Origin: an uncultured Gammaproteobacteria bacterium
Lineage (GTDB): Bacteria > Patescibacteriota > Patescibacteriia > UBA9934
DNA length: 64,000 nucleotides
Assembly (NCBI GenBank): GCA_964452565.1
Contig: CAYVLY010000001.1
Coordinates: forward strand, 386,897-450,896
Direction of reading: 5' to 3'
In this document: one piece after another, positions 2,542 to 61,946 of the stretch
Layout: the number at the start of each line of letters is the position of its first letter
Position numbering within the stretch: the stretch's first letter is position 1
Made by a program: the position numbers and the translations under genes
Notes under the pieces: model-generated
What the model saw: the letters and a program-made list of their open reading frames with translations, nothing else
Database searches by the model: none
Told to the model about the DNA's origin: nothing

Positions 2542-3780
2542 CTACATCATCTTCCGTCTGATAAACGCCGGGATGCCGAGGTCTTCATCATCTTGTCCAG
2601 CCTCAGACTTTGCTTGCTGACCACCCGCTGGAGGCTGTGCACCAACTTTTTGTTCAAATGTGTTCACTGGCTTTGGTTGCACTGGAGTACTTGAGACACG
2701 TTTTTGTTCAAATGGAGACTCCTTTTTCTGAGTGACAGCTGGCTTCTCATCACGCTCTGGAGCCTTCCAACTTCCTTGTGGTGCAACATCCATATCCCCT
2801 GCCAAGCTAGGTGTACTTCGTTGTTTTCTATTATCAAAGCCTGTTGCAACAACAGTAATCTTAACTTCATCTTCAAGTGTCTCATCTATGTTTGCTCCAA
2901 AGATAACTCTAGCATCATCATCAGCTGATCCAGTAATAACCTTTGCGGCCTCTGCCACCTCGTACATAGAAAGATCTGGGCTTCCAGTTACAGTAAATAG
3001 GATTCCTTTTGCGCCATCAATTGACAACTCGAGAAGCGGACTTGCGATCGCCATCTTAGCTGCCTCTACTGATCTATTTTCACCTGACGCTGATCCAATC
3101 CCCATCAAAGCTGAACCAGCGTTCTGCATAATAGCTTTGACGTCGGCAAAGTCAACGTTGATGAGTCCAGGTAAAGTAATAATCTCTGAGATTCCTTGGA
3201 CACCCTGTCGAAGAACATCGTCGATAATCGCAAATGACTCCAAAAGCGACGTCTTTTTATCAATAATCTGGAGGATTCGATCATTTGGAATTGTGATGAC
3301 TGTATCTACTTGCTCTACTAATTCATTGTAAGCATCGTCTGCAATACGCTTACGTTGAGCTCCTTCAAACGAGAATGGCTTTGTAACAACGGCTACTGTA
3401 AGTGCACCCGCTTCACGTGCAACCTTTGCAACCTCTGGTATTGAACCGCTTCCTGTTCCTCCACCAAGCCCGGCGGTCAGGAAAACCATATCAGTTCCTT
3501 GAACAGTGTTACGAATATCATTTGAACCCTCTTCTGCAGCACGTCGACCAACTTCTGGATTCATCCCCGCACCTAGTCCACGGGTTACAGTTTTACCTAT
3601 TGCAATTTTCTCCTTAGCTGGATTTTGATGAAGTGCTTGAACGTCAGTATTGACCGCAACAAACCCAACGCCCTTTATTTTTTCTTCAATCATGCGCTTT
3701 AGAGCTGCACCTCCACCTCCACCAATTCCAAAGACCTTGATCTTTGCAAATGTTTCTACTTCTGGTTTTACTTGAGCCAT
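2542..3780 (-). CDS. ftsZ: cell division GTPase FtsZ
   Basis: Tubulin signature GGGTGSG; N-terminal GIGGGGGAA; 412 aa. Confidence 0.95.
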   Translation of the reverse strand: MAQVKPEVETFAKIKVFGIGGGGGAALKRMIEEKIKGVGFVAVNTDVQALHQNPAKEKIAIGKTVTRGLGAGMNPEVGRRAAEEGSNDIRNTVQGTDMVFLTAGLGGGTGSGSIPEVAKVAREAGALTVAVVTKPFSFEGAQRKRIADDAYNELVEQVDTVITIPNDRILQIIDKKTSLLESFAIIDDVLRQGVQGISEIITLPGLINVDFADVKAIMQNAGSALMGIGSASGENRSVEAAKMAIASPLLELSIDGAKGILFTVTGSPDLSMYEVAEAAKVITGSADDDARVIFGANIDETLEDEVKITVVATGFDNRKQRSTPSLAGDMDVAPQGSWKAPERDEKPAVTQKKESPFEQKRVSSTPVQPKPVNTFEQKVGAQPPAGGQQAKSEAGQDDEDLGIPAFIRRKMM

Positions 3781-17800: not shown

Positions 17801-18837
17801 AGCGTGTAACGAGTGTCCTCTTCAGTGTCATCTGTATACCAAGTGCTTTCAATGGTTACATCTGATAAGTCAGATCCGCTTGCTGATACAGTGTCAAACC
17901 AATCATCACCAGCATAAAAATCCGCGCTCGATATCTCACTGTCATCTGTTGCTGATACTTGAACTAAACTTGAACTGTCTGTTGAGATATTCTCGCCGCT
18001 CTCAGGATAAGTAACACTCACATCAGGATCTTCGGTGTCAACTAACTCACCTGTGGTGAAAGTTGACGTACAGTCTGAAACCGCACAATCAAGCGAGGTT
18101 CCGGTCGAACTTTCAATATCGCCGTCTACAGTAACGGTGTACTGGGTATTTTCATCAAAACAATATCTATCTTCGTTTGGCTCAGGGCATGCTTCAGATG
18201 GCATGAACTCAATGCTGTTTCCTGAAATCTCCAAAGTTCCACTTACCTCATCGCCTGTTTCAGTATTTGTAATTGTGATATTCCCTTCAACTGTATCTTC
18301 ATCCAATGTTCTACTGAACGTGACCTCAGCTACGACATTACGAATCGACACTTCGCCTTCTGGTGAATAACCCGCAACTGCAAACGAAGTTACTGAACCT
18401 CCACCATAAGAACCACCCGCCCCACTATCACTACTTGTATAATCGCCATCACCGCCTGTGGCTTCTAATAAGGCATTTAGCACAAACGTCGTAATCGACC
18501 ACGATAATAATATTATCGCAAGCCCAATAAACCCGTTGAGAAGGATCTTCTTTGCTTTATCTACCTTGTCCGCCTCACCTCTTGCCGTCATCCACATGAA
18601 ACCACCGTATAGCACTATTACAACCGCAATAACGCCCAGAACAGTCAGGAATGTCCTTATAATCTTCGCAACAACGATTCTAAGATCTTCGTCCTGCAGA
18701 CCCGATACATCACCCACTTCCTCGAGTTCGTCGACTTGAGCATGGGTTACTTGCATTGGCACTAAGACACCTCCTGTTATTGTAAACAGGACTGCAAGCG
18801 AGCTTATGAATAGAGTTAAACGTTTGAAAAACAGCAT
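8863..18837 (-). CDS. giant (3324 aa) cell-surface adhesin-like protein with N-terminal signal peptide plus two-TM TrbC/VirB2-like pilin anchor module and a multi-domain ectodomain
   Basis: Single uninterrupted 9975-nt ORF. N-terminus: signal peptide, then VIAVVIVLYGGFMWMTARGEADKVDKAKKILLNGFIGLAIILLSW (two hydrophobic helices). Ectodomain: Big_5-like Ig domains; IPT/TIG-like ISPSNGAVGTYVTISGSGFG; many Cys-rich repeats of the form CGDGxxDxGEECDDGNxxxGDGCSSxC (DUF4215/Myxococcus-type cysteine-rich repeat); a TSP3 repeat DTDGDGIPDDEDNCPDDSNPSQLDTDGDGVGDECE; a vWA domain with MIDAS motif VIDLSKSMS. Confidence 0.85.
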   Translation of the reverse strand: MLFFKRLTLFISSLAVLFTITGGVLVPMQVTHAQVDELEEVGDVSGLQDEDLRIVVAKIIRTFLTVLGVIAVVIVLYGGFMWMTARGEADKVDKAKKILLNGFIGLAIILLSWSITTFVLNALLEATGGDGDYTSSDSGAGGSYGGGSVTSFAVAGYSPEGEVSIRNVVAEVTFSRTLDEDTVEGNITITNTETGDEVSGTLEISGNSIEFMPSEACPEPNEDRYCFDENTQYTVTVDGDIESSTGTSLDCAVSDCTSTFTTGELVDTEDPDVSVTYPESGENISTDSSSLVQVSATDDSEISSADFYAGDDWFDTVSASGSDLSDVTIESTWYTDDTEEDTRYTLEVTVTDIAGNEDTDSVRIKILPAHCFNGTQDEDEEGTDCGGSCGSCDGDSCEEDDDCASGTCEDGTCVSYPEIESISPSNGAVGTYVTISGSGFGTRGSVYFSDGAGGTVEADIPTCGEGWWSDQIIAEVPEGADDGPITVEVSPSGYTDSTDNDEGTLIDDFDVNETERPNLCNIAPDEAEVGDAVTLSGLGFGDSVGDSSIYFDTTEASSYSTWSDASAVVTVPSLTAGEFVDVSVTVDGVTSNEISFGVEYSDEEIPTIYSIDPEEGGVGQYVTISGTNFGAAIGSVWFEDQTSGYVAQGSVDFPDACEDDYWSDDEITIIVPEEFTNESDVEAGDYDLYITTQAGVDSDDIDFTVTDDEPTPGICAIDPDIAEVDDTIIIYGQRLGSTAGSVEFYSSVFGTVEDWDDDSVTVTVPSGTQTGPVSVTSSALEESNELNFEVGTVEEEVAADVSGGYAWYFSTGDIPDVPTLLVECSDDLVSAVPNLIYTTESCTNTVIRASFSTVMDEDTISTDNIKIFECSDSRCNVDFDDDDVSGSVYASSSTERTSFTWTLDSSYNDGKFKTSTSYLVWVTDDLTSYSDTGVGQTLEEDVTWTFTTGPSEADCEIEEVMVSPTSSTIEEQGEDSEFNALPLQECQVLNPASYGWDWDVDTYSYIGLTDCEEMTEDYCISAVGVAEGITILTAEESDSGTTGDAEVTVNFEDPYVSDYQPDCSSACVNGAISATFNVVMDDSITDYITLYSCSNELCAVVSEITTTASCSSVESVGCSEVTLTIADSDYGTSLKESEFYRVVVSGSAISNSGVALTRTNYGDDFSWTFGSKDDDALCLVSSIALAPENQTLEAIGDTQHYEVTAYGDPDSCSVAGQELSGYGYDWSWTDPIVSDEDVAEWVTVASSLFDVGQTNIPDGCTSACTASGSETYYGICGNGSTETGEDCDDWNTVDGDGCSSSCQYEGTDACVYTCSSTGESCSADTDCQEVCEITDTEALIGTCSISETECSLDTDCTYAASTCDADSSSCCGDGDLDTGEECDDNNSTNGDGCSSSCLNEGSQAAGATCGNSDIAHEDDQGGEDCDDGNASSGDGCSSICLNEGTTAITQVAAECGDGTIDEPYETCDDSNTTDGDGCSSSCIREGADADYASFGSSGECGDEILDQHSSTSAGEDCDGEEWCSDDCLLSGSSIYYTEASVCGDGIAGYGELDACEGSSYGAGPDGYTDPVQLALISTDAGQQVDMSTNLATATVQVTYDDLTAYTSLYLSCVAEDDDDCDDGYGPATTLCCMERPDPELFPNGSNACLNAEIYGLFNMKMETSTFEGNVFIVLDITTTDDGTCPSTHSTIALGGSSDSWWQRALNVFTMIFAPIVHAQTSGDCILPITGYTQSAVGDGVYKVVFNHDQALAAEASYTIYVTGDTLGDDDRDGVLTSYGVAMDGDASQSFETYQSICGLDEVDIIDGDEDSPNAFTEVDEEHTFTATAYSYDTGSAQAIEPISGYTWEWTSWSSDDDDDDDGIGSFLTRSSESVGSVSAATADYTSTGSSGEANIATKAIVTEDTSGESFYCSSDASITGCTTDSECQETCSSGVCSISGESCDLDTDCEYVSATCESTVVSGTEDITIVVCDNPWPALDYFPFEDNADGLHAGSGVSAGVGRGWMNFSTYYCRDAGEDGDTDDDYPELRVVMAQERGSTEVLKEYFFNVVNDNGPTGDAIGVRFVMNSSYLSPMAWYYANGFSGNPTQTTIDGFQAVVDGRSTYVAVPNYVTGSLYPNIAIISYNYGASSTAVDIFDMMLENLSLVTNVDDMALCYSSTAGNYTTSCESDLDCTATGYDCADIKSKLMRDMDRLGDVTDLAEYMSSSTPQIESGSFVRSLTSSVWGSWDDVLATDLGVSVDSDPLDSYQGCGSGRYRDYDETTCVDEVAGEYLCPRGSRTYHYRAYGDSGYVIGAELEFKTGSWFSDIDSDTTDDEQIIIGGYGTGDGFQNGPAFCDGSTIWGASDICGDGIVGSGELCEVGDTTSSTTACDSDGDGTNDGYYVDECDSTCAAYSTTTTCDATSCGNGVTETGEDCDDGSLNGSYGFCGADCLNTSRTYCGDGTLAGGEACDCGSSGTASGAAYGGGSCTYLNGVYDASASNTCAWDCSGAGPYCGDGDADDEEDCDGTTDTYSGMLCTSGNSTDEDKCDEDSDCIMIVAAGSGSSSTGQCGETDTTDETKDTANECPYTTVCVDGDADKMGEPCDTDGDCDSSGVADGICSSIEYQTTRTRTCDDSTCLWAYDWADIDCIAPGSCGDGVVDDGEECDDGNDDSTDSCTIECTENICGDGYVYDGEESCDEGSANGTICTASYGSTCAYCNDNCVNVTSSGSFCGDGEINGDEVCDADDVSYYYYDSTNGVYDYCDVADEGGTVEVDEDGEIILDGSTGTTYTCTMVGVCNGGSDNGDHCMADSDCEYSDCALPVCNDSCANMCPFTYTAQSIALETNELGAKRTYTTDISPFDSSGLVISTGNSSTLYIPECTVSDGLTMTINDDDREYPDVEIMFVIDLSKSMSSDLGDSTRIEVLESAVGDAITALHEAYDGVSADMGIGWAYIGGLHQTYTAPVDTDGDGIPDDEDNCPDDSNPSQLDTDGDGVGDECEEEVPEPIECDCGELVLDEADCEDICGDDDDDGGIDDDGLGGTDPAETEGATGYDPSIKDTKLATLSFWDQAIDMFKPLVAWASYSSSGEGKFLMLEAASSAGVSTTESDTQSSITSGLVVDSTTGTPIYESIEDAALGFSGYADNEYMIIFTDGNIYNTDYESLYFDHIDTEDTDGDDVMDTAEYMRGVSNILDDIKDAGVEVFSAVLSDSDCEIAQMQRWSSMECTDNSDSCGAMTTEGNHDCEVPDNGITYAYSATTSDELVAMYEAIVDAILNVTISLTFDGETESTTIEAGLSRSIELPTTFSCDGSNEQTVTLRTAYNGEGTVELSDIYLNMCAQ

Positions 18838-20733: not shown

Positions 20734-20802
20734 ATTTTCTTGTCGTGTTAGTTACAACGACCACTAACATTATACCGCAAACTCAAGCAATCTTTACTAC
20801 AA

Positions 20803-20842
20803 ATTGTGGACACAAAAAGCCCCCGATTTCTTAGGGGCTTTT
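20803..20842 (-). terminator. 40-nt repeated double-hairpin terminator module (copy 1)
   Basis: ATTGTGGACACAAAAAGCCCCCGATTTCTTAGGGGCTTTT: hairpin TTGTG-GA-CACAA plus hairpin AAGCCCC-N9-GGGGCTT with T-run. Identical copy at 25844..25883. Confidence 0.6.
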
Positions 20843-21647: not shown

Positions 21648-24600
21648 TCATGACAGTGCGATATCTTCTCCTGGATTCAGACCTTCTGAACAGGTTCCTG
21701 TTGATGTAGAGGAAGATGAGATTGAGTCTGCACCACCTTCAAGAGAGCCAATCTCGGGAGAAGATGAGGTTGTTGGAGTACTTCCTGAACTTGCTGTTGT
21801 AAAACTTATGTCGTCTAGTGTTGTTTCATTACCAAAGTCATCTATGGCCCAAATCTTTGTGTAATATGTGGTTTGCTTGCTAAGGCCTGTGATGGTTGTG
21901 GTTGCGGTTCCTACGGTTGTTAGATCTGTGTCATCTGAATCATCCCATTCAGTAGCACTTGTTCTACCTTGAACATCTGACTGGCTAGTATCAATCCAGA
22001 TTTCATAATGATTAAAGTTTGAGTCTGTGGCTGCAGTCCAGGTAAACGTTGCGGTTGTGGTAGTCGCACTAGAACGTGCGAATGAAGCTAAAGACGCTGG
22101 ATCTACATTGTCTACAGTTATACTTGTTTTAGATGCAGTAGATCCGGCTGCAGTTCCATCATATGGAGTTATTCTAACCTGGGCAGTAGAAAGATCGGCT
22201 GCTGCCTCATCTGTAGCAGATTCCCATACAACAGAGACTGTATTAGCTCCAGATGAACTTGTTATATATCCACTGGCATTACCTACTTGGTAAGTATCAT
22301 CGTTTTCTACTGCAGGATCTCCATAAGTAGCAGATGCCTCTGCTCCTGTCTCAGATACTGTAGCTTTAGTCCATCCTCCGCCAATGTCGTATTCAACAAG
22401 GGCCTCTAGAGTATCGTCATCATCTGCATCATCCATGATGAATGTAATAGTCACATCTCCTGTTCCGTCTGTACCTTGAGTTGCTGTAACTGTTGAGACT
22501 GTTGGGGCAACATTGAAACCCCAGTTGGTATTATTCCCTCCATTTGTTGAACGTGACGGGCTTACAGCATGTGTAATTGTATTACCACCACTCGCATCTG
22601 AATCTGTGACATTAACATAATCTACAGAACTTGTACCTGAAACATTTAAAAGCCAGGTTGTAGCAGGACTAGAACTAGTAATTGTAATCAGGGCTGCATC
22701 ACCACCTGTTAATGTTAGGGTCCCAGATACTGTTGTTGTGGTGCTTGCTGTAAATACAATTGCCTTACTTGCTGTTGTAGAGGTTAAATTATTGAAAGAT
22801 GTAGTTCCAGAAATCGTTGTTGTCTTTGACACGTCGTCCAATGTCACGGTTCCTGATCTGGGCGTAAATGTCCCGGAGTTAGCCCAATCACCTCCCACTG
22901 TAATTGCATAGTTATCACCATCTGAAGTGTCTAGCGTTCCAGCCGTAATTGTGAGTGTATTATTTACATCTATAGCCTCATCTAGTGTATAAGTGCTACC
23001 AGATGAGTTAATTGTTAAATTATTGTATGGAGATAATGCTGAAAGTAATGATGTAGACTCTGTGGTTGCTGCATTATATGTAATTGTTCCACCTGAGTTA
23101 GTCCATGTGTTTGCAGTTTTAACAATATCAGAAGTCGTATCATTAGATTCAATCTGAAGTTCACCACTTGAAATTGTTACAGTATCTCCTCCTGCATCTC
23201 CAAAGGTATTTATATTTGTTCCCGTCTTCATCGTTCCACCACTAATAACTGTATTACCTGCAATGGTCATAGTGTAGTCATTAACATCAAAGGTTCCTGC
23301 AGATACTGTTAGATTTCCCACTATTGATTCATTTGCACCCAACTGAGCTATTGCACCTCCAGTTGTTGCAATTTCCAGGCTTTGATATGCCCAGTCCTGC
23401 ATAGCAACCGTTCCTGTTGATGAAACATATTTTACTGTAGAGCCTGAGTTCAAAGTTGGAACAGTATCATCTAAAGTCAAGGTTTCTGTTCCTCTCCATG
23501 CAAATGTTCCGCCATCTTCAACTACAAAATCACCAGACCAACCACTAACTGTCAAATCATAACCATTTATATTTAATTCCCCTTCTACAACAGTGAGGTC
23601 TTGCTCACTGTCATTCACAGTTAAATCAGATGCTAAATTAACAGTCGGTGTTGAAGTGGTGGTTCCTATTTTTATATGTCCGTCATATAAAGCTTCTGCT
23701 CCAGTTAAATCAAAAGTTTGAGCACTAGAGCCAGCAAGAGTCAATACAGAGTCATTCTTATCATAACTGTACCAATTTGATTCTATTGTTACATCTCCTT
23801 GAGCTTCAATTGTGCCCAATATCGTCCTTCCATCACTCATTAATAAATCACCTTCAACATACAGGGTATCCCCAGAGCCTAAATAAACATAATTAGAACC
23901 TCCACCACATACAACGCCCGTACCACTACAATCAAAGGTAACATCATTGAAAACACCAGAAGTAGCAATTGACGCCTTATCAAAATTCCAAGTGTCAGAA
24001 CCATTACCATCCCACATGAAAGTACCACTGTTATGATTAGAAACACCTCCAGCAGTATGGGTCCAACTGCCTGCAATAAATGTTGTACCAGTTGTTGCAT
24101 TAAAAGTTCCATCTGTAATAATCACATCATTTACATCTAATGTTCCTGTATTTCCATTTAATGTACCTCCAGATATATTTAAATCATCTGCCACCTCCAA
24201 TTCATATGCGCCAACATTCAAACTTCCATCAGTGAGTGTCAAATCTTGTCCTGAACTATTCATTATCAAGTCAGATGCTAAATTAACAGTTGGTGCTGCG
24301 GAACCAGTCCCTATTGTTACATGTGCGTTAAATAAAGCTTCCCCTCCAGTTAAATCAAAAATTTGTGTACCAGAGCTAGAAAAAACTAAAGGAGTGTCAC
24401 TGGTATTATTGCTATACCAATTTGACTCTATTGTTACATTTCCCTGGGCCTCAATTGTACCTGTTATTACTCTTCCATCACTCATTAATAAATCACCTTC
24501 AACATACAGGGTATCCCCAGAGCCTAAATAAACATAATTAGAACCTCCACCACATACAACGCCCGTACCACTACAATCAAAGGTAACATCATTGAAAACA

Positions 24601-25793
24601 CCAGAAGTAGCAATTGACGCCTTATCAAAATTCCAAGTGTCAGAACCATTACCATCCCACATGAAAGTACCACTGTTATGATTAGAAACACCTCCAGCAG
24701 TATGGGTCCAACTGCCTGCAATAAATGTTGTACCAGTTGTTGCATTAAAAGTTCCATCTGTAATAATCACATCATTTACATCTAATGTTCCTGTATTTCC
24801 ATTTAATGTACCTCCAGATATATTTAAATCATCTGCCACCTCCAATTCATATGCGCCAACATTCAAACTTCCATTAGTAATAGTTAAATCTAGCCCACCA
24901 TAATTCAAAATACAATCCGAAACTAAATTAACAGTTGGTGCATTAGTTACAGTTCCAATAGTTGTATGTGAATCCCATTCATCTGTATATCCTGTTAAAT
25001 CAAAAGTTTGTGTCCCTGTTCCAGTAAATGTCAGAGCGGCATCAGTAAGATTAAAGGCATCCCAAGGTCCTACAGTGACATTACCCTGCACCTCTATACC
25101 ACCACCGTTAAACCACCTTCCATCATAAAAAGTCGCATTACCGTTTATATATAGGGTGTCTCCTGAAAGATTAACATAGGAGCCGGAGTCACTGGTGCTA
25201 TCATAAGTAAAATTATTAAACACTCCAGAGGTAGGAATCCCGGCTTTATCAAAATTAAAGGTTTGTCTATAACCAGTATGTTTGACTGTTCCTGAACCTG
25301 CATTCCACACTCCTCCAGCTGTATGTGTCCAGTTTCCAGTAAAAGTGAGCGTCCCTGACGTACCATTAAATGTACCACCTGAAATTGTAACACCTCCGCT
25401 TATTGTAATATCTTGACTTGCTCCAGTGAATGTCCCATCTGCTTGATCATAATGTGATGAACCAATTGTTAAACTTCTAGCCTGTGTAATGGTCCCATCA
25501 TAACCACTATTTATATCAATTCCAGCAACAGACCCTGCAAATGAAGCGTCAATTGTTGAATCATTGTCAGAAGTATTATCAAAAGTAGCAACATCACTTG
25601 CTCCTGGTGGTGAATCGGTAGACCAGTTCAAGCCAGTTGACCAGTTTGTATCAACTCCTCCGCCACCATCCCAAGTGACTACTGCTGCATGAGCTTGATT
25701 GGCACTCCAAAAGGCTGCAAGTAGCACAAATAATGCAATAATAGAAATATTGCAAATCAGCAAGCCAAGCGATCTTGTCTTAATATATTTCAT
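21648..25793 (-). CDS. large secreted/anchored protein with parallel beta-helix-like ~215-aa tandem repeats and C-terminal FN3-like domains
   Basis: Likely start MKYIKTRSLGLLICNISIIALFVLLAAF (signal/anchor) at 25793; the ORF-track start at 25856 lies inside the terminator repeat. Repeats NISGGTLNGNTGTLDVNDVIITDGTFNATTGTTF occur; two copies are nucleotide-identical over ~400 nt. FN3-like TTATFTWTAATDSNFNHYEIWI. Stop TGA at 21648..21650. Confidence 0.8.
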   Translation of the reverse strand: MKYIKTRSLGLLICNISIIALFVLLAAFWSANQAHAAVVTWDGGGGVDTNWSTGLNWSTDSPPGASDVATFDNTSDNDSTIDASFAGSVAGIDINSGYDGTITQARSLTIGSSHYDQADGTFTGASQDITISGGVTISGGTFNGTSGTLTFTGNWTHTAGGVWNAGSGTVKHTGYRQTFNFDKAGIPTSGVFNNFTYDSTSDSGSYVNLSGDTLYINGNATFYDGRWFNGGGIEVQGNVTVGPWDAFNLTDAALTFTGTGTQTFDLTGYTDEWDSHTTIGTVTNAPTVNLVSDCILNYGGLDLTITNGSLNVGAYELEVADDLNISGGTLNGNTGTLDVNDVIITDGTFNATTGTTFIAGSWTHTAGGVSNHNSGTFMWDGNGSDTWNFDKASIATSGVFNDVTFDCSGTGVVCGGGSNYVYLGSGDTLYVEGDLLMSDGRVITGTIEAQGNVTIESNWYSNNTSDTPLVFSSSGTQIFDLTGGEALFNAHVTIGTGSAAPTVNLASDLIMNSSGQDLTLTDGSLNVGAYELEVADDLNISGGTLNGNTGTLDVNDVIITDGTFNATTGTTFIAGSWTHTAGGVSNHNSGTFMWDGNGSDTWNFDKASIATSGVFNDVTFDCSGTGVVCGGGSNYVYLGSGDTLYVEGDLLMSDGRTILGTIEAQGDVTIESNWYSYDKNDSVLTLAGSSAQTFDLTGAEALYDGHIKIGTTTSTPTVNLASDLTVNDSEQDLTVVEGELNINGYDLTVSGWSGDFVVEDGGTFAWRGTETLTLDDTVPTLNSGSTVKYVSSTGTVAMQDWAYQSLEIATTGGAIAQLGANESIVGNLTVSAGTFDVNDYTMTIAGNTVISGGTMKTGTNINTFGDAGGDTVTISSGELQIESNDTTSDIVKTANTWTNSGGTITYNAATTESTSLLSALSPYNNLTINSSGSTYTLDEAIDVNNTLTITAGTLDTSDGDNYAITVGGDWANSGTFTPRSGTVTLDDVSKTTTISGTTSFNNLTSTTASKAIVFTASTTTTVSGTLTLTGGDAALITITSSSPATTWLLNVSGTSSVDYVNVTDSDASGGNTITHAVSPSRSTNGGNNTNWGFNVAPTVSTVTATQGTDGTGDVTITFIMDDADDDDTLEALVEYDIGGGWTKATVSETGAEASATYGDPAVENDDTYQVGNASGYITSSSGANTVSVVWESATDEAAADLSTAQVRITPYDGTAAGSTASKTSITVDNVDPASLASFARSSATTTTATFTWTAATDSNFNHYEIWIDTSQSDVQGRTSATEWDDSDDTDLTTVGTATTTITGLSKQTTYYTKIWAIDDFGNETTLDDISFTTASSGSTPTTSSSPEIGSLEGGADSISSSSTSTGTCSEGLNPGEDIALS
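23836..24876 (-). repeat. near-perfect intragenic tandem duplication (period 645 nt; about 396 nt identical: 23836..24231 = 24481..24876)
   Basis: The identical 77-aa reverse-frame ORFs 23879..24112 and 24524..24757 in the ORF track show the duplication. The identical nucleotide strings were read directly. Confidence 0.85.
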
Positions 25794-25843
25794 GATCTTA
25801 TTGTTTCTATATTGTATCAAGCTACTATTTATAAAAGAAACAT

Positions 25844-25883
25844 ATTGTGGACACAAAAAGCCCCCGATTTCTTAGGGGCTTTT
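25844..25883 (-). terminator. 40-nt repeated double-hairpin terminator module (copy 2), downstream of yqeY
   Basis: Identical to 20803..20842. Confidence 0.6.
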
Positions 25884-26950: not shown

Positions 26951-27237
26951 GTCCCCAGCCAATTTTTCCCAGCTAATCTTAAACTCAGGCCTGTCACGAG
27001 CACGTCCAGGTTTATCCTCGGGCAGGAGAACGGAATTGCATTTTGCGTGACATTTATCCATATAAACAAATGGAGCTCAAAATGCCCGTTCGTATGTACC
27101 GAGGTATACCTGGACAGCGCAGTGAGGCCAAGCAGTTTCTTTTCCCCATTTCTTTGCTGCTTCAAAGAAATGGGGCCAGGGGTTAGGGGCAGGATGCCCC
27201 ATAACAAAACAGGGCCTTGCGGCCTTGTTTTATTTTT
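26951..27237 (+). ncRNA. copy 1 of an about 240-nt structured repeat family (candidate sRNA or MITE) with 3' rho-independent terminator
   Basis: Shares >85% identity with 46210..46489 and a core with 61947..62167. Internal hairpins CCCCATTTCTTTG-N7-CAAAGAAATGGGG and GGGGCA-GGA-TGCCCC. Terminator ACAGGGCC-TTGC-GGCCTTGT plus TTTTATTTTT. Confidence 0.5.
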
Positions 27238-27241
27238 GAAT

Positions 27242-27499
27242 TTATCGTTTTCGATATCCACCGCGTCGGCGGTCATCTTCATTGATCTGTCCAGTCTTTA
27301 CCATCCAAGCTCGCTTCTCTCCGATCTTTAGACCACGCAATGCGCTATCTTTTCGCTTGTTCTTTGTTTTCTTTTTAACATGATATCGCTTTCCTGCAAC
27401 AGACAACTTTTTACCAGATTGCATAAATCGACGTGAAAATCGACGATACATCGCCTCAAAACTTTCACCTTTCTTTCGTTTGATAAAAATGTCTGACAT
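27242..27499 (-). CDS. rpsU: 30S ribosomal protein S21
   Basis: Basic 85-aa protein; YRRFSRRFMQSG...KRYH.KKKTKNKRKDSALR resembles the S21 family. Confidence 0.65.
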   Translation of the reverse strand: MSDIFIKRKKGESFEAMYRRFSRRFMQSGKKLSVAGKRYHVKKKTKNKRKDSALRGLKIGEKRAWMVKTGQINEDDRRRGGYRKR

Positions 27500-27702
27500 G
27501 TGCTTTCACCTTCCTTTCTCTGGTGGAACCTCCATCTTTGGCATATCGCGGTGTCGAAATCTACTTTTTTGCTCATCGTACGTTCTAGTACGTTTCGCAA
27601 AAGCCTCGATTTCTCCTAGCGATATATCCAAACCTGAAAATTCCTTAATGATTACTGGCAGAATAGTACTAAAATTGGATAATTATGTCAATCCTAAATG
27701 CC

Positions 27703-27741
27703 TAAAAAGCAAAAGTCCCACCCAGGCGTTCCCAGGTGGGG
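27703..27741 (-). terminator. GC-rich hairpin plus T-run terminator downstream of the high-GC gene 27767..28579
   Basis: Minus strand reads CCCCCACCTGGGAACGCCTGGGTGGGACTTTTGCTTTTT, the same style as the terminators at 36577..36614 and 37757..37810. Confidence 0.5.
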
Positions 27742-27766
27742 GCTCGAAAGTCCGATCGCGAGGAGG

Positions 27767-28579
27767 CTACCTGAGCATCCAGCCGTAGATGTCCTGCATG
27801 CGATCATCGATGTTCTCGTCCCTCAGGCAGACCGCGATGCGCGCTGCCCAGGCCGGAACCATCATGTCGGGACACATCATGACGGCGGCGTCGTAGGGGA
27901 AGAACTCTACCCCCTGGATCACCTCTGCGTCTGAACCGTCACCCCCCTGCGCCGTCTGCACGTTGAGGTGCAGTGTGCCCCGATCAGTGGCCTTGAGGAA
28001 CCTGATGTCCACCTCGACAGCGAGACAGCCGATACCCTGACCTTCCCTGAAATTGGAGAACCACTGGGAACGCTGAGGGTTCATGCGCGGTCCCGGAACC
28101 ATCCAGGTACGCTTGAAGACCCCTTCGTGGTCACCAACCTCAGCATGAAGCTCCTCCATGCCGGTATCCTCGTGGGTCGCGGCGATCTTACCGTAGCCAC
28201 CGGCGGCGTTCCAGCTCATACCGCCCATGCATGGACGATTTTGGTAGGCCAGCGCCACGTAGAGACCACCCTCGACCACGACGTACGGCATAACCACCGT
28301 GCCACCACCACCTGCTTCCCAGTAGACCACAGTGACGAACTGGTCACCGTTTCCAGCGTCGAGATGGCAGAGATGGACCTCGCGGTAGATCTGCTTCTCG
28401 TCGTTGTGGATGTACAGAACGACTCTCTGAACCTGGTCTGAGCCGCCAGACCCCTCGACGCTGTCGACGTGCACCTTCCAGTCCGACTCCACACTCGATG
28501 GGATAGGCCCCAGGACAGCCAAGATGCCCTCAGGCATCAGGCTCTGAAAGCCACTCGCTTGAACCTGCTCTTCACTCAT
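27767..28579 (-). CDS. hypothetical protein encoded in a ~60% GC island (cassette 1)
   Basis: 270-aa ORF with GC content far above the surroundings. RBS GGAGGTG before the ATG; TTGACG-N17-TAAGGT promoter-like element about 60 nt upstream; own terminator. Confidence 0.55.
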   Translation of the reverse strand: MSEEQVQASGFQSLMPEGILAVLGPIPSSVESDWKVHVDSVEGSGGSDQVQRVVLYIHNDEKQIYREVHLCHLDAGNGDQFVTVVYWEAGGGGTVVMPYVVVEGGLYVALAYQNRPCMGGMSWNAAGGYGKIAATHEDTGMEELHAEVGDHEGVFKRTWMVPGPRMNPQRSQWFSNFREGQGIGCLAVEVDIRFLKATDRGTLHLNVQTAQGGDGSDAEVIQGVEFFPYDAAVMMCPDMMVPAWAARIAVCLRDENIDDRMQDIYGWMLR

Positions 28580-28706
28580 AGCACCTCCATGCTAATGCCA
28601 ATCCTTGCCATCAGTAGCAAAGGAAAAGAACCTTAGCGTAATTATCGATTCTCGTCAACCCAAAAACCCGCCAAATCGGCGAGTTTTTTAAACTGTCTAT
28701 ATTCTT

Positions 28707-29405
28707 TTATATCTGCCCCTTGAGTGCTTCCAATTTTTCAATAACTGCAGCCTTGTAGCCCTCATCTAACTCTTCTCCAGAAAACTCATATGAAACCTCT
28801 CCACTGGCATTCATTGTAATTGCAACGGTAGTAGAAGGCCCACTATAGTCAAAATTATCACCCGAGTAAGTCTGAAGACTACTTATATGAATCTCTGCCA
28901 CAGCTTTTGAGTGGAAATATTCATCAAAATAATAATCACCAGGCTCAAATTCATCAACGTAATTTAAATCAGGTGTATCAACATTTGCACCAAACCCATT
29001 ATATAAACTGTGACCGTTCTCAACTGGATTAACTTCTGAATGATCAACCTCATCCATCACGGTATCTAAATCACCTTCGTTAAATACCTCACGTGCCCTT
29101 GTAATCATTGCACCACGCTCAGTTTGTTCAAATTTCTCTATTGCAGCTTGAATTTCTTTATCATCAACCTCTGCTTCCACCGAGGCTCTATCTGCCTCCA
29201 TGCGTATAAACTCAACCCCTCCCTGCAATGCATCCCAGTCAAAATCTCTCAACTTCTCAGCAAGCGCCCTATCACTTCTTGCTGATGATACCAACTGTGA
29301 AAACTCTTCAACTCGTCGTCGCGCCTCTAGAAACTCCGTCCTCTCGAGGACTTCTCTTGTATCTGGAGCGCGTACAACCTCCTTTGGTGCACCTCTTTCT
29401 GGCAT
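28707..29405 (-). CDS. hypothetical acidic protein
   Basis: 232-aa ORF in a native-GC background; no recognised motif. Confidence 0.5.
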   Translation of the reverse strand: MPERGAPKEVVRAPDTREVLERTEFLEARRRVEEFSQLVSSARSDRALAEKLRDFDWDALQGGVEFIRMEADRASVEAEVDDKEIQAAIEKFEQTERGAMITRAREVFNEGDLDTVMDEVDHSEVNPVENGHSLYNGFGANVDTPDLNYVDEFEPGDYYFDEYFHSKAVAEIHISSLQTYSGDNFDYSGPSTTVAITMNASGEVSYEFSGEELDEGYKAAVIEKLEALKGQI

Positions 29406-29486
29406 ACATTTAAGATTAAATAATTATTACCCTCATTCTAAGAACTAATGATCTAAATTACAAGAAGGTGTCCACACAAGGGCTGT

Positions 29487-29515
29487 ACCATAAAAGACCA
29501 GGCAAGCTGGTCTTT
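29487..29515. terminator. bidirectional terminator hairpin AAAGACCAG-GCAA-GCTGGTCTTT downstream of hisS
   Basis: Perfect inverted repeat flanked by A/T runs. Confidence 0.6.
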
Positions 29516-29532
29516 TATAGTGAAAAACAAAT

Positions 29533-30858
29533 TTATTTACCTTTGAGCTGCTTCTTCACTAAATTAAGAACCTTGGTGATATCTACAATCTCTTGCCCTC
29601 CTGATTCCATATCACGAATAATGATTGTTCCATCAAGTACTTCTTTTTGCCCAAGGATCAATGCAACCTTTGCATTCCGTTTATCGGCGATCTCAAGCTG
29701 TGCCTTAAGTGCCCCCTTTCCAAACGCTTCCGCAGTCTTGATGCCCGCAGTACGGAACTCCTCAAAAACTATCAATCCTTTGCGTCGAGCTGCATCTCCT
29801 AGCTGACAGAAAAAAACATCAGTCTCTTGCTGTTTAGGAAGCTCAACTCCTTGACTCTTCATAGCGCGAACGATCCGCTCTATACCAAGCGCCAATCCCA
29901 TAGCAGGGGTATCCTCGCGACCACCAAGCTGCTCAATCAACATGTCGTAGCGACCTCCGCCCCCAAGAGAACTTTGTGCCTTCTCACCTTCGTCATCCAC
30001 TTGCACGATCTCAAACACAGTCTTTGTGTAGTAGTCCAAACCTCGAACCAAGAATGGATCAAGTTCATATGGCACCTCGGCCTCATCAAGATATTCAATT
30101 ACAGTCATGAAGTGTTGCTTTGATTCCTCATCAAGCCAATCAAGAATCTGCGGTGCATCCTTTTTGAGCTCATCCATTCCCTCTTCCTTTGAATCAAGTA
30201 GCCGCAATGGATTCTTAGTCAAACGCTTCTTGTCAACATCAGACAACTTTTTACGGAACTGCTTAAAGTAACTCACAAGTTCCATGATGTACTCACGTCG
30301 TGAATCCTCTGTTCCGATTGAGTTGATCAAAAACTTCACATCTACACCAAGCTCAGTAAGCATCCGATGTGTCATGATGATCATCTGTGCATCTAGAATT
30401 GGATCAGATGACCCAATTGCCTCAAGTCCAAACTGATAAAACTGACGATAACGACCAGCCTGCGGACGATCATGTCTAAACATCGGACCGAAGTACCACA
30501 TCTTCACTGGCTGTGTCTTGTTAAGCATTCCATGTTCGATATACGCACGTGCGACTGAAGCAGTTGCCTCAGGTCGCAATGTAACACGAGCCTCGCTCGG
30601 ATCCTTAAATGTATACATCTCCTTTTCAACTATGTCAGTTGCCTTTCCAACAGAACGCTCAAACAAAGTTGTTGGCTCTAGAATTGGCAGACGAATACGA
30701 CCAAAACTATAATCTGTTGCAATCTTTCGACAAGCATCCTCAACAGCATCCCAATATGTTTGATGCTCAGGAAGGATGTCTTTGAATCCACGCAAAATCT
30801 GCGGGGTCTTTATCTTTTTCTTTGGTTCCTCCTCGATAGGTTTCTTCTGTGCAGTCAT
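29533..30858 (-). CDS. hisS: histidyl-tRNA synthetase
   Basis: Class II aaRS motifs; HisRS-like RLDSKEE...GGGRYD; 441 aa. Confidence 0.9.
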   Translation of the reverse strand: MTAQKKPIEEEPKKKIKTPQILRGFKDILPEHQTYWDAVEDACRKIATDYSFGRIRLPILEPTTLFERSVGKATDIVEKEMYTFKDPSEARVTLRPEATASVARAYIEHGMLNKTQPVKMWYFGPMFRHDRPQAGRYRQFYQFGLEAIGSSDPILDAQMIIMTHRMLTELGVDVKFLINSIGTEDSRREYIMELVSYFKQFRKKLSDVDKKRLTKNPLRLLDSKEEGMDELKKDAPQILDWLDEESKQHFMTVIEYLDEAEVPYELDPFLVRGLDYYTKTVFEIVQVDDEGEKAQSSLGGGGRYDMLIEQLGGREDTPAMGLALGIERIVRAMKSQGVELPKQQETDVFFCQLGDAARRKGLIVFEEFRTAGIKTAEAFGKGALKAQLEIADKRNAKVALILGQKEVLDGTIIIRDMESGGQEIVDITKVLNLVKKQLKGK

Positions 30859-34541: not shown

Positions 34542-34550
34542 TACAGAACA

Positions 34551-34642
34551 CAGATCCCCTCCAGCTCCCCCCTCGAAAGGGGGAGGGTCTAGATTCGAAA
34601 TTAGACCCCTCCTTGCGAAGGAGGGGGTAGGGGAGGTCTGTG
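34551..34642. repeat. dual-hairpin REP/RPE-like element copy A (der-pth spacer)
   Basis: CTCCCCCCTCGAAAGGGGGAG hairpin, then GGTCTAGATTCGAAATTAGACC, then CCCCTCCTTGCGAAGGAGGGG hairpin. Family members at 53535, 54409, 56494 and 61069. Confidence 0.7.
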
Positions 34643-34663
34643 AATCTCAATTCCAACAACTCT

Positions 34664-35920: not shown

Positions 35921-35948
35921 AAAAAGAGCCAATCCCGGCTCTTTTTTG
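35921..35948 (+). terminator. terminator AAGAGCCAATCCCGGCTCTTTTTT; near-identical copy at 36611..36636
   Basis: Hairpin GAGCC-N6-GGCTC plus T6. Confidence 0.6.
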
Positions 35949-35959
35949 GTTTACAGGGC

Positions 35960-35988
35960 TTGACAATGCAGTTTTTTTATGCTAAATT
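35960..35988 (+). promoter_or_regulatory. near-consensus sigma70 promoter of high-GC cassette 2 (TTGACA-N17-TAAATT, preceded by TGC)
   Basis: TTGACA at 35960..35965, 17-nt spacer, TAAATT at 35983..35988. The ORF-track start of the 198-aa ORF (TTG at 35960) is this -35 box. Confidence 0.55.
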
Positions 35989-36034
35989 TCTTTGTTCATT
36001 CAACCAGGCCCAGGGGCGCAAACCAGAGAACAAC

Positions 36035-36556
36035 ATGCCTGACAGAGTGGAAAAACTCGCCAGTCTAATGGGAATGAAAGGAACCGTAGTTGATGGGAAG
36101 GAAATCTTCGCCTGTCGGCTCGGTTCAGAAGGCGACACCCTCGTCATCGCGTACTACGACGACGCGCGGCACATCTGGAAAATCCGGTTCTTGCCGGGAA
36201 TCCCCATCGTACCTGCGCAAGCGCTGGTGCACGGTGGCTACAGGTGGAACGAGCGAGGCTATGGATATAAGTTCTACAACTGGCCCAAAACCTCAATCCA
36301 GATCGAAGATGAACCCCACGAAGTTGGTCAACGCGAATTTATGTGTTCGATTGGTGCTTTCACAGCTGAACGAACCGTGGATGCCTTCGTGGCGCTCCAA
36401 CTCGTCTTCCGCGTAAGCTTCCTTGCGCCATACGATCGCCCCCTGACAGACACACAGGTCAGAGAAGCAATGCATCTAATGACGATCGTGGCCAATGACT
36501 GTCATTTTGTCGCCCCACCTGGGTATTACCCTGGCGACGAAGACCTCGAAAGCTAA
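36035..36556 (+). CDS. hypothetical protein in ~60% GC island (cassette 2), 173 aa from first ATG downstream of the promoter
   Basis: In-frame ATG at 36035 (M26 of the track ORF 35960..36556); GC-rich codon usage unlike the host genes. Confidence 0.5.
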   Translation: MPDRVEKLASLMGMKGTVVDGKEIFACRLGSEGDTLVIAYYDDARHIWKIRFLPGIPIVPAQALVHGGYRWNERGYGYKFYNWPKTSIQIEDEPHEVGQREFMCSIGAFTAERTVDAFVALQLVFRVSFLAPYDRPLTDTQVREAMHLMTIVANDCHFVAPPGYYPGDEDLES

Positions 36557-36576
36557 ACCGTACCTCACCCCCACCC

Positions 36577-36614
36577 CGGACCCCCGCGTCCTTGCGTGGG
36601 GGTTCTGCTTTTTT
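36577..36614 (+). terminator. GC-hairpin terminator of cassette 2 (shared module TCACCCCCACCCC...CGTGGGGGTTCTGCTTTTTT)
   Basis: ACCCCCGCG-TCCTTG-CGTGGGGGT hairpin (one G.U pair) plus TCTGCTTTTTT. About 80% identical to 37757..37810. Confidence 0.65.
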
Positions 36615-36682
36615 GAGCCAATACCGGCTCTTTTTTGACCAAACTACCAACGTTACACGTTGGTAGTTTTTGCATAATTATA

Positions 36683-36711
36683 TTGACAATTTGGCTAATT
36701 TATGCTATATT
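36683..36711 (+). promoter_or_regulatory. near-consensus sigma70 promoter of high-GC cassette 3 (TTGACA-N17-TATATT)
   Basis: TTGACA 36683..36688, 17-nt spacer ATTTGGCTAATTTATGC, TATATT 36706..36711. Similar to the cassette 2 promoter (TTGACAAT...TTTATGCTAWAT). Confidence 0.55.
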
Positions 36712-36778
36712 TTTTTGTTTCTAGCGCAACTCCGCGCAGAACATATCGTGCATCCCGCACGTGAAGAGGGAGACAAGA

Positions 36779-37747
36779 ATGACTCACAGGCAAATCAAGG
36801 TGTGGCGCCAGCCCACCTCTGTGAGCGTCCAGCTCGAAGCCACCCGCAGCGCCGAGCACGAATTGAGACAGCTCATCATAGCCATACAGCAAGCGCTGGG
36901 GGTCCAGGACTGGCACAACTTCGGACGCATGCTCCAGACCTGCTGCAACGTCTTCATGCCAGAACGCCACACCCCGATGGGCTTCGGCGTACGCAGACGT
37001 TCACCAGCCCAGATCCTCAAGCGCAAGATGGAGTGGGTGGACATCGAAGAGTTCAAGGCCTTCGGCCTCAAGATCGAAGACGAAACCTTCACAGCCACCC
37101 CCCGCGAACCCGTGACCATCACGATCGGACGCACCTTCACTGGGGGTCACGAGTTCAACAGCGATGGACACAGCATCGTCTTCACGGTCGCAAGCGACTC
37201 CGAGGTCGAGATCATCGCTGAGGTCCAGGACAGAGTCGGGAGCGTCGATAGAGGCCGCCACATGGGCAGCTACCACTTGCAGCTTGGCGAAACCACCTAC
37301 ACATCTGTGCTCTACGTCCAGGCCTGGACTCAGAGACACTGGGCCTTCAGCAAGGGCAGCAAGGAACGCCTGGGAGACCGCCTGCAGGAACCGCCCTACG
37401 ACTGCTTCCGCCGAGATGCTCCGATCTATCAGGTCGAACCGCTCGAAGACGAGGAGCTCGTGGTCTACGAGAGCTCTGGGGCCCACAATGTAGGTCTGGA
37501 AGTGCCCTTCTCGCGCACGGCACCGAGACACCCGGATCGTCAGGTCTTCGCCTCGGTCGGACCGTTCTCGTTGGCACTGCGCAAGGGCGAACGCCGCGGA
37601 CGCAGCCCAGCTCGCGATCGCATCGTGGTCTTCCGCGATGACAAACTGCCCATCGTCCCACCCGAAGTTGACGATGAGGAATGCGACGATAGCGGCTGGG
37701 ACTGCGACGAATTCGACTTCGCTGACCGGTACGACGCAGAGTACTAG
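36779..37747 (+). CDS. hypothetical protein in ~60% GC island (cassette 3), 322 aa
   Basis: RBS GAGGGAGA 6 nt before the ATG at 36779; GC-rich; antisense ORFs in this stretch are treated as GC artefacts. Confidence 0.55.
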   Translation: MTHRQIKVWRQPTSVSVQLEATRSAEHELRQLIIAIQQALGVQDWHNFGRMLQTCCNVFMPERHTPMGFGVRRRSPAQILKRKMEWVDIEEFKAFGLKIEDETFTATPREPVTITIGRTFTGGHEFNSDGHSIVFTVASDSEVEIIAEVQDRVGSVDRGRHMGSYHLQLGETTYTSVLYVQAWTQRHWAFSKGSKERLGDRLQEPPYDCFRRDAPIYQVEPLEDEELVVYESSGAHNVGLEVPFSRTAPRHPDRQVFASVGPFSLALRKGERRGRSPARDRIVVFRDDKLPIVPPEVDDEECDDSGWDCDEFDFADRYDAEY

Positions 37748-37756
37748 CCCCACCAC

Positions 37757-37810
37757 TCACCCCCACCCAAGGACCCCCTCGTCCTCGGCGTGGGGGTTCT
37801 GCTTTTTTGT
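37757..37810 (+). terminator. GC-hairpin terminator of cassette 3 (second copy of shared module)
   Basis: TCACCCCCACCCAAGGACCCCCTCGTCCTCGGCGTGGGGGTTCTGCTTTTTTG. Confidence 0.65.
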
Positions 37811-46209: not shown

Positions 46210-46489
46210 GTCCCCAGCCAACCTTCTAACCTCGGGCCTGTCACGAGCACGTTCATGCTCATCCCCTGGCAGGAAGACGGAATAGCATTTTGAGTCCAAT
46301 TTATCCATATATACAAATTGGATCGCCAAAATGCCCGTCTGTATGCCTGGGGTATGCATGGACAGCGCAGTGAGGCCAAGCAGTTTCTTTTCCCCATTTC
46401 TTTGCTGCTACAAAGAAATGGGGCCAAGGGTTAGGGGTTAGGGGCAGGATGCCCCAATAACAAAAGACCGGCGATCTGCCGGTCTTTTG
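46210..46489 (+). ncRNA. copy 2 of the about 240-nt structured repeat family with 3' terminator
   Basis: Near-identical to copy 1, including the GTCCCCAGCC start. Hairpins CCCCATTTCTTTG-N7-CAAAGAAATGGGG and TCCAATTT...AAATTGGA. Terminator GACCGGC-GATCT-GCCGGTC plus TTTT. Confidence 0.5.
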
Positions 46490-54408: not shown

Positions 54409-54446
54409 GGCAACCCCCTCTATCTCCCCCTTGGGAAGGGGGAGGA
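54409..54446. repeat. REP-like element copy C (single hairpin CTCCCCCTT-GGG-AAGGGGGAG with GGCAACCCCCTCTAT leader)
   Basis: Identical leader and hairpin to copy D at 56494. Confidence 0.7.
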
Positions 54447-54447
54447 C

Positions 54448-61147: not shown

Positions 61148-61151
61148 ATTA

Positions 61152-61934: not shown

Positions 61935-61946
61935 AAGCTCTTTCTT

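Follow-up and report, generated by a model that had tools for sequence, protein, structure and literature searches.

A GC-rich, moron-like cassette between hisS and rpsU of Candidatus Uhrbacteria with a predicted degenerate Nudix-fold product

We examined a 64,000-nucleotide stretch of DNA from an uncultured bacterium (assembly GCA_964452565.1, contig CAYVLY010000001.1, positions 386,897 to 450,896; hereafter the window), in which a GC-rich single-gene unit, here called cassette 1, lies on the minus strand between hisS and rpsU. A scan of species-representative genomes based on histidyl-tRNA synthetase (HisRS) assigned the lineage to Candidatus Uhrbacteria (Patescibacteria). The slot is bordered on the left by hisS (29533-30858, minus strand; recognized from Pfam matches in syntenic loci and 62-87% identical in Uhrbacteria relatives) and on the right by rpsU, encoding ribosomal protein S21 (27242-27499, minus strand), both of them conserved, and it holds two genes. 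One is the 270-residue open reading frame (ORF) of the cassette, ORF1 (27767-28579, minus strand), which, as judged from the ORF list, composition, homologues and a structural model, would encode a diverged Nudix-fold protein with a degenerate Nudix box. The other, taken from the ORF list, is a 232-residue hypothetical gene (28707-29405, minus strand) with an ordinary GC content of 42% and a GC content at third codon positions (GC3) of 0.31.

The composition of cassette 1 departs sharply from its surroundings. In 300-nt windows, GC content was 0.58-0.62 across 27700-28599 vs. 0.38-0.43 on either flank, which upholds the claim of an earlier, sequence-only reading of this DNA that the ORF lies far above its ~42% GC neighbours; the 1-kb background over the window was 37-47%, two further islands at 36-38 kb aside. 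ORF1 itself has 60.1% GC (z=7.5 vs. the rest of the window, with 813-nt windows outside the three GC islands as reference: mean 0.436, standard deviation 0.022, maximum 0.522), and the change points of cumulative composition fell at 27716 (terminator) and 28558 (start codon), so that GC content is anything but uniform. Codon usage gave the same picture, with GC1/GC2/GC3 of 0.65/0.41/0.75 in the annotated frame only, compared to 0.54/0.36/0.41 in nine housekeeping genes. Among ~55 ORFs of the window, the three cassette ORFs were the only outliers in GC3 (0.59-0.77 vs. 0.23-0.58) and in NNC/(NNC+NNU) (0.65-0.88 vs. 0.17-0.61).

A GC step this abrupt, falling at gene boundaries, could also be produced by a chimeric assembly or by high-GC contaminant reads joined to a contig of the candidate phyla radiation (CPR). 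We consider such an artefact exceedingly improbable, as evidenced by: 1) Logan contigs of SRR8146440 (3296 bp, window 27173-30468) and SRR8146441 (1790 bp, window 27173-28962), which are separate run-level assemblies, span both cassette junctions at 100% identity, so that the island borders, feared to be unsupported by reads, are reproduced exactly; 2) orthologous GC-rich genes occupy the same slot in independent metagenome-assembled genomes (MAGs) of other projects; 3) the flanking regulatory sequences are kept across genomes. Chimerism of cassette 1 is thus excluded as far as sequence alone allows. GC-rich islands of AT-rich genomes are also often RNA genes, and with a promoter and a terminator of its own the cassette might be a structured non-coding RNA bearing a fortuitous ORF. 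Against this stand the codon-position periodicity, the low probability of 270 codons without a stop at this composition (p ~4e-4), a Nudix motif conserved among protein homologues and a confidently predicted fold, as well as a weak structure z-score in synonymous-codon shuffles; searches of cassette 1 against Rfam, at gathering thresholds and at E<=1, found no RNA family. In view of this conservation at the protein level, the non-coding reading is effectively refuted and we attach almost no weight to it.

Cassette 1 carries signals for its own transcription and translation. Its 5' untranslated region (UTR; 28580-28629, minus strand, 46% GC) contains the Shine-Dalgarno sequence GGAGGTG (28582-28588), in keeping with the strong ribosome binding site that had been noted. 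A putative promoter read from the sequence (28630-28658, minus strand) comprises a -35 TTGACG (28658-28653), a 17-nt spacer and a weak -10 TAAGGT (28635-28630); a TTGAC-type promoter as proposed therefore exists, but its -10 matches only 3/6 consensus positions and our consensus scan did not call it. At the 5' edge of the cassette, comparison of three loci revealed an upstream low-GC hairpin terminator, AAAAAACTCGCCGATTTGGCGGGTTTTT (28663-28690, minus strand), in which GGCGGGTTTTTG is invariant in all three (window, L012 and L005). The window and the related locus L012 are identical over the 19 nt of GGCGGGTTTTTGGGTTGAC, which covers the upstream hairpin and the -35, and share GGGTTGAC in the promoter region at the orthologous position. 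At the other end, a GC-rich 3'UTR with an intrinsic terminator (27704-27766, minus strand, 61% GC) was found by terminator scan, the stem-loop at 27740-27717 having a 10-bp stem with 7 GC pairs, CCCACCTGGG-AACG-CCTGGGTGGG, followed by ACTTTTGCTTTTT, with the T-tract reaching ~27704; the GC-hairpin terminator of the sequence-only reading is therefore real, and the consensus scan calls it. The terminator module GGGTGGG(G)ACTTTTGCTTTT lies 3' of ORF1, of the L012 Nudix gene and of a second, unrelated L012 cassette. With a promoter, a Shine-Dalgarno sequence, a 270-codon ORF and an intrinsic terminator, cassette 1 is predicted to be a genuine autonomous transcription unit.

The product of ORF1 emerged from remote homology. 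On its own, ORF1 had no match in Pfam (even at E<=1), PHROGs, PADLOC, NCBIfam or PDB sequences, and in a word-indexed search of 5.8 billion clusters it matched itself only. An exhaustive phmmer scan of 1.84 billion representatives uncovered ~164 remote relatives, led by P0003 (36% identity, E 6e-27), P0004 (34%) and P0005 (29%), which rules out ORF1 as an orphan; the homology check called for earlier was thus blank in Pfam for the single sequence and successful by phmmer, placing the former orphan in a mostly patescibacterial Nudix family. Named members of the family are nearly all Patescibacteria, along with one Myxococcota cluster; none is actinobacterial. The consensus of the family alignment, ...PRGFxxPGExHxxxAxRExxEExG..., is a canonical Nudix box, 28/40 aligned homologues match Pfam NUDIX (PF00293) at E<=0.01, and the homology of ORF1 to the aligned family is significant (phmmer E 6e-27 to 1e-10). 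The family profile also matched ADP-sugar pyrophosphatases in PDB at 1e-7. An AlphaFold (AF2) model of ORF1 built from the family alignment had a predicted local distance difference test score (pLDDT) of 90.2 and a predicted template modeling score (pTM) of 0.86, and all of its top 50 PDB matches in Foldseek were Nudix enzymes at probability 1.0, led by NUDT5 and ADP-ribose pyrophosphatases (E 6e-8), the latter from Klebsiella and E. coli, and including the GDP-mannose hydrolase YffH. Against NUDT5 and the two ADP-ribose pyrophosphatases, 210-255 columns were aligned with a template modeling (TM) score of 0.53-0.59, normalized to the target.

The model places an N-terminal beta domain (strands E34-E88) ahead of the Nudix core, so that ORF1 resembles NUDT5, NudF and YffH in its two-domain fold of an N-terminal beta domain and a Nudix alpha/beta/alpha core. 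It differs from NUDT5 and NudF in an extra N-terminal segment, a subfamily-specific insertion, three changed box residues and an identity of only 10-16% to solved structures. Based on this model, ORF1 appears to belong to the Nudix-fold proteins of the ADP-ribose/ADP-sugar pyrophosphatase (NUDT5/NudF) type, as a two-domain member that has diverged a great deal. A conserved proline some 15-16 residues after the box, which Dunn and colleagues are said to have described in 1999, reportedly marks the ADP-ribose pyrophosphatase type; in ORF1, P164 lies 15 residues past G149, inside the family motif LPGxPxNPN. The box of ORF1, G128-x5-A-x7-E-E143-L-H-A-E147-V-G149, departs from the canonical G-x5-E-x7-R-E-U-x-E-E-x-G-U in three signature residues (first E to A, R to E, and first E of the EE pair to A), and because of these losses we surmise that a ligand-binding protein, or one of altered specificity, is more likely than a standard hydrolase. 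P0021, P0153 and the L015 homologue retain the full box; among near relatives, the box of L005 is nearly canonical, that of L013 is split by an insertion, and those of L012 and L004 are degenerate in other ways. That the box is variously degenerate in ORF1, L012, L004 and L013 implies that catalytic residues were lost repeatedly, which would point to a relaxed or shifted function.

To place the cassette in its genomic context, we compared the window with 16 related Candidatus Uhrbacteria loci (HisRS identity 51-87%), which share the conserved backbone folC-dprA-[slot]-pth-der-lytR-[slot]-lepB-hisS-[slot]-rpsU-yqeY. More distant relatives (L017-L024 and L026) hold no gene between hisS and rpsU, which lie only 100-260 bp apart. 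In five species the slot contains a Nudix homologue: beside ORF1 in the window, there are P0004 in L005-L008, a 284-residue homologue with a second GC-rich ORF in L012, a P0005-type homologue with a 694-residue gene in L015 and in L040 (a further locus of the L015 lineage), and a 272-residue ORF in L013, recognized as Nudix by profile comparison only (hhalign probability 84%, E 8e-6). The 232-residue gene of the window has no homologue at any relative's locus. The slot proteins have in common an insertion, ..IYRxVxxG....EGNxY, that the wider family lacks, indicating that they form one subfamily. Pairwise identity between the slot species was 28-43% for the Nudix proteins vs. 73-87% for HisRS and 56-92% for S21, with synonymous sites at or near random expectation between genomes, in cassettes and housekeeping genes alike. 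From synteny together with the shared insertion, it is apparent that the Nudix subfamily has occupied this slot in a subclade of Candidatus Uhrbacteria. The synteny comparison thus agrees with the sequence-only reading in finding an accessory cassette in a variable slot, one that is empty in L017-L024 and L026, and disagrees with it in that five species hold a diverged homologue there.

Two observations concern the surroundings of these genes. rpsU has a promoter of its own, TTGACA-17-TACTAT (27691-27663, minus strand), with a leader of ~190 nt (27500-27690) that L005 shares (75% over 405 nt, coding sequence [CDS] included) and the closer relative L012 lacks; the leader had no Rfam match and may be an S21 regulatory leader. 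In L004 and L011, four-helix-bundle genes of the bAvd/23S_rRNA_IVP type (3084-3440 and 1583-1960, respectively), similar to accessory genes of diversity-generating retroelements (DGRs), lie 2-6 kb from genes of the Nudix family.

The GC excess of the slot gene recurs in other hosts. In four of the five species the Nudix gene exceeded host GC3 by 0.28-0.34, the hosts themselves ranging from 0.25 to 0.61: 0.57 vs. 0.25 in L005, 0.68 vs. 0.40 in L012, 0.75 vs. 0.41 in the window and 0.95 vs. 0.61-0.62 in L015/L040, L013 being the exception. When wider family members from other Patescibacteria (L004, L009-L011 and L042) were added, Nudix GC3 regressed on host GC3 over 10 genomes with a slope of 0.88 and an intercept of +0.27 (r=0.74, p=0.013), with a mean excess over host of +0.21 (p=1.5e-4). 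Cassette genes as a group lie ~9-24 GC points (GC3 +0.2 to +0.5) above the composition of their hosts.

These data bear directly on the origin of cassette 1, which the sequence-only reading had attributed to recent horizontal acquisition from a high-GC donor such as a phage, a plasmid or the actinobacterial host of an episymbiont. Atypical composition and patchy distribution are both true of the cassette (z=7.5; slot empty in L017-L024 and L026), and an accessory cassette in a hot spot is what we found; the recency and the proposed donors found no support. Equally GC-rich and very divergent versions in the same slot of relatives suggest that the odd composition is long-standing rather than a recent import, and the ORF3 gene of the window (described below) likewise has an orthologue of 65% GC in a genome of 42% GC. 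In addition, with synonymous positions near random expectation, any ancestral donor signature should have been erased. As for donors, nothing more than 36% identical to ORF1 was present among ~15 billion proteins, tblastn of ORF1 in phage and plasmid collections and a scan of IMG/VR returned no relatives, and the named family members do not include an actinobacterium; in codon usage, GAA/GAG is near 50/50, which is ill-suited to an actinobacterial donor. With no relatives found in phages, plasmids or actinobacteria, there is little to support a recent transfer from a donor of high GC content. Signs of mobility were also wanting: there is no tRNA within 19 kb of cassette 1, no repeats flank it, and no integrase or transposase appears among the ORFs listed at 24-40 kb, some of which are unprofiled. 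DGR-type template/variable repeats involving 27.7-28.6 kb were absent from the window, with no systematic search for a reverse transcriptase.

Cassette 1 has company. Cassette 2 (35960-36615, plus strand) comprises a promoter TTGACA-17-TAAATT, a putative orphan CDS of 173 residues, ORF2 (36035-36556, 54% GC), and a GC hairpin terminator (36578-36605), while cassette 3 (36683-37808, plus strand) comprises a promoter TTGACA-17-TATATT, a 322-residue CDS, ORF3 (36779-37747, 61% GC, GC3 0.77), and a GC hairpin terminator (37776-37797). Their promoters score 10/12 and 11/12, respectively, with a TG extension (extended -10), and the terminator scan and module comparison bear out that the terminators of the three cassettes are of the same style. 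ORF1, ORF2 and ORF3 showed no detectable relationship when compared with each other. The sole homologue of ORF3, P0002 (46% identity), resides in the same pth-dprA slot of the syntenic MAG L003 and is itself GC-rich (65% GC, GC3 0.86, in the 42% GC genome mentioned above), its locus keeping the cassette 3 promoter, two-hairpin 5'UTR and terminator; a structure prediction of ORF3 from this 2-sequence alignment was unusable (pLDDT 36). Further GC-rich single genes (GC3 0.65-0.89), for which there was no Pfam or PADLOC match, occur in L012, L014, L015 and L017, where they occupy the pth-dprA, hisS-rpsU and lytR-lepB slots. A promoter module, TTGACAA..T.TATG[CA]TATATT, is common to five cassettes of four unrelated CDS families, and a 3' module, CTCACCCCCACCC..GGGGGTTC, to four cassettes. 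Together, these small accessory genes make up a class found at a handful of intergenic sites within a single conserved block of housekeeping genes; divergence or exchange is far quicker in their coding parts than in the modules on either side or in the genes next to them. Searches for the terminator motifs elsewhere were uninformative, with two chance-like matches to the cassette 1 motif in IMG/VR and three matches to the cassette 2/3 motif in metagenome contigs, namely the L012 species again and two non-cassettes.

Based on the above, cassette 1 is the local member of a fast-evolving Nudix subfamily occupying the hisS-rpsU slot in a Uhrbacteria subclade, and each accessory cassette comprises a near-consensus promoter module, a coding part and a GC-rich terminator module. 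We infer that the GC excess is a maintained equilibrium rather than the mark of a donor that has yet to ameliorate. In our view, it would most likely be caused by a fixation bias favouring GC, tied to recombinational turnover of these hypervariable loci, for which GC-biased gene conversion (gBGC) in a naturally transformable lineage could be the source; such conversion would explain at once the high GC at all positions, the GC-shifted amino acids and the rapid divergence of the proteins. Overall, a resident, fast-evolving Nudix cassette with a maintained GC excess is the explanation we favour, with somewhat more confidence than doubt.

Several observations weigh against this interpretation. 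The slot homologue of L013 is almost without GC3 excess (0.48 vs. 0.41), and with L013 included the slot-only correlation of GC3 is not significant (r=0.77, n=5, p=0.12); the background GC3 of several loci comes from only 2-4 flanking genes. Moreover, Nudix and species relationships are discordant, in that the window and L012, the closest species pair, have the least similar Nudix proteins (28% identity vs. 87% in HisRS) while L005 and L015 share 43% vs. 73%; differences in rate would account for this pattern, and so would transfer or the replacement of alleles. The terminator modules shared by unrelated CDSs could mean that cassettes arrive as mobile units. GC-rich donors are also conceivable, given the myxobacterial cluster in the family and the Uhrbacteria of high GC content: L024-L026 (HisRS ~62% identical) have ~62% GC overall, so that the GC content of Uhrbacteria hosts spans ~37% to 62%, and these genomes matter in two ways, as potential donors and as a natural contrast. 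Lastly, gBGC of this size (+0.3 GC3 in single genes) is undescribed in bacteria, the effects reported for bacterial gBGC being far smaller (Lassalle et al. 2015, PMC4450053).

Much of this could be accommodated by recent or recurrent horizontal replacement, whereby unsampled donors of high GC content (CPR phages, Myxococcota-like bacteria or high-GC Patescibacteria) would repeatedly supply GC-rich coding segments to the same hot spots, perhaps by homologous recombination via the shared promoter and terminator modules, with the GC excess as donor signature. The anomaly is of the classic compositional kind, the slot varies in content between close relatives and is empty in others, and identical modules surround unrelated CDSs. 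In the same vein, a 24-nt low-GC terminator, GAGCCAATMCCGGCTCTTTTTTG, is duplicated on either side of cassette 2 (35921-35950 and 36615-36638), suggesting a tandem duplication of the whole terminator-promoter-CDS-terminator unit, yet ORF2 and ORF3 are dissimilar. We nonetheless think replacement rather unlikely, since 1) the closest relatives reach only 36% (ORF1) or 46% (ORF3) among those ~15 billion proteins, with none of ORF1 in phages, plasmids or IMG/VR; 2) five species have, at this very position, members of one subfamily marked by a common insertion; 3) cassette GC3 scales with host GC3; 4) integrase (as far as the ORF list tells), tRNA and flanking repeats are missing at cassette 1; 5) the promoter parts are AT-rich and typical of the lineage.

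Alternatively, the genes may be resident and their GC content selected via expression, with NNC codons and nuclease-resistant, GC-rich mRNA serving strongly expressed small proteins. In line with this proposal, cassettes 2 and 3 have near-consensus extended -10 promoters, Shine-Dalgarno sequences and terminators are strong, C-ending codons dominate (TTC 0.91, ATC 0.92 and TAC 0.85), and the predicted folding energy per nucleotide of cassette mRNA is ~1.6-fold that of neighbouring genes. However, the excess of ORF1 extends to the first two codon positions (GC1 +0.11, GC2 +0.05) and to amino acids (lysine down from 8.2% to 2.7%, arginine up from 5.0% to 7.4%), and includes the untranslated 3'UTR; in the cassettes, 3'UTR and terminator have 61-70% GC while promoters and 5'UTRs have 38-46%. 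G-ending codons (CAG, AAG, CTG and GTG) are raised as well, rpsU, the sole ribosomal-protein gene in the window, has a GC3 of only 0.34, the promoter of ORF1 is weak, and shuffling of synonymous codons yielded no clear signal of mRNA structure (z of -2.4, -2.1 and -0.8 vs. -1.8 and +0.3 in controls). We therefore judge selection on expression to be quite improbable as the main cause. Both selection on transcripts and recurrent replacement stay live as alternatives to a maintained excess, the discordance and the portable modules fitting the latter.

A bolder proposal is that Uhrbacteria may possess a previously undescribed type of portable single-gene cassette whose short conserved promoter and terminator modules would act as homology arms, with natural transformation swapping the coding parts; recombination at such intensity would fuel gBGC that holds GC 15-20 points above the genome even as the proteins become almost unrecognizable. 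We deem it unlikely as it stands; if true, it would represent the first gene-scale gBGC hot spot in bacteria. A search for enriched 7- and 8-mers, such as Chi-like or uptake motifs, in 15 cassettes disclosed none that was convincing, and our survey of the literature on GC-rich islands in Patescibacteria turned up nothing relevant.

Among known systems, the architecture of the cassette has its closest named counterpart, by analogy, in the phage moron, a concept reportedly owed to Hendrix and co-workers. As morons are defined (Cumby, Davidson & Maxwell 2012, PMC3594210), the likeness lies in a single gene with its own promoter and terminator, situated between conserved genes, absent there in relatives and deviant in GC content, with the qualification that the promoter of ORF1 is weak and those of cassettes 2 and 3 are strong. 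Unlike a moron, cassette 1 sits among chromosomal genes of a CPR bacterium (hisS, rpsU, lepB, der, pth and dprA) rather than in a prophage, with no nearby phage genes, no PHROG match and no viral homologues of ORF1, and its anomaly is old, for diverged orthologues still show it and it is no sign of a recent gain. On these features, we regard cassette 1 as a new, degenerate representative of a Nudix family found mostly in Patescibacteria, within an unusual moron-like system that is persistently GC-rich.

Other parallels are less close in kind. Chromosomal hot spots, or islets, are sites where accessory genes lie between core genes, and at hisS-rpsU, pth-dprA and lytR-lepB, likewise, the cargo differs between genomes and some genomes have none. 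The cassettes are GC-rich, whereas DNA acquired by bacteria is mostly AT-rich; they are also single genes that share promoter and terminator modules, with no mobility genes among those seen. The mouse Fxy gene bears the signature of gBGC, and the cassettes resemble such a case in raised GC3, accelerated protein evolution and GC-shifted amino acids at loci expected to recombine; the effect here is far above bacterial reports (+0.2 to +0.5 GC3 in single genes). Finally, cassettes 2 and 3 recall an integron as an array of single-gene units with a conserved 3' element beside unrelated ORFs, but each comes with a promoter of its own, an intrinsic terminator with a T-tract stands where an integron would have attC, and no integrase or attI was seen near the cassettes in the ORF list.

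High GC content in a low-GC genome is routinely taken as evidence of recent horizontal transfer; this shortcut fails here, because diverged homologues at one and the same locus show the anomaly in hosts that differ greatly in base composition. If the excess is indeed maintained, by biased conversion or by selection on transcripts, the cassettes would offer a clean, gene-sized natural experiment on bacterial base composition and a way to study recombination in CPR organisms that are uncultivated and naturally transformable. As fast-evolving, autonomously transcribed small proteins of an episymbiotic lineage, their products are candidates for functions in host interaction or conflict.

Other repeats and large genes of the window deserve brief mention. 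A GC bump at 44.2-44.6 kb that we considered as a fourth cassette belongs instead to a low-complexity repeat protein: 18-nt and 21-nt tandem repeats (44180-44365) account for it, within the gene of a 613-residue protein rich in A, E and P (42795-44636, minus strand). An intergenic repeat of ~210-300 nt occurs in three copies (26980-27189, 46227-46437 and 61939-62151; 83-95% identical in matched blocks) and contains the hairpin CCCCATTTCTTTGCTGCTTCAAAGAAATGGGG; both Logan contigs end in its first copy, at 27173. It had no Rfam match and could be an element like a miniature inverted-repeat transposable element (MITE) or an unknown small-RNA family. Palindromes of high GC content (CTCCCCCTTGGGAAGGGGGAG and variants) that resemble repetitive extragenic palindromic (REP) elements are dispersed between genes at 34550-34653, 53533-53607, 54409-54447, 56494-56594 and 61111-61158, with similar small palindromic elements in slots of L003 and L012. 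A 44-nt terminator-like duplicate (98% identical; 20799-20842 and 25840-25883) lies on either side of the gene of a 1402-residue repeat protein (21648-25856, minus strand), which has internal direct repeats of 645 nt (23613-24632). A 3324-residue ORF (8863-18837, minus strand), rich in short internal repeats, probably encodes a giant surface protein typical of CPR genomes.

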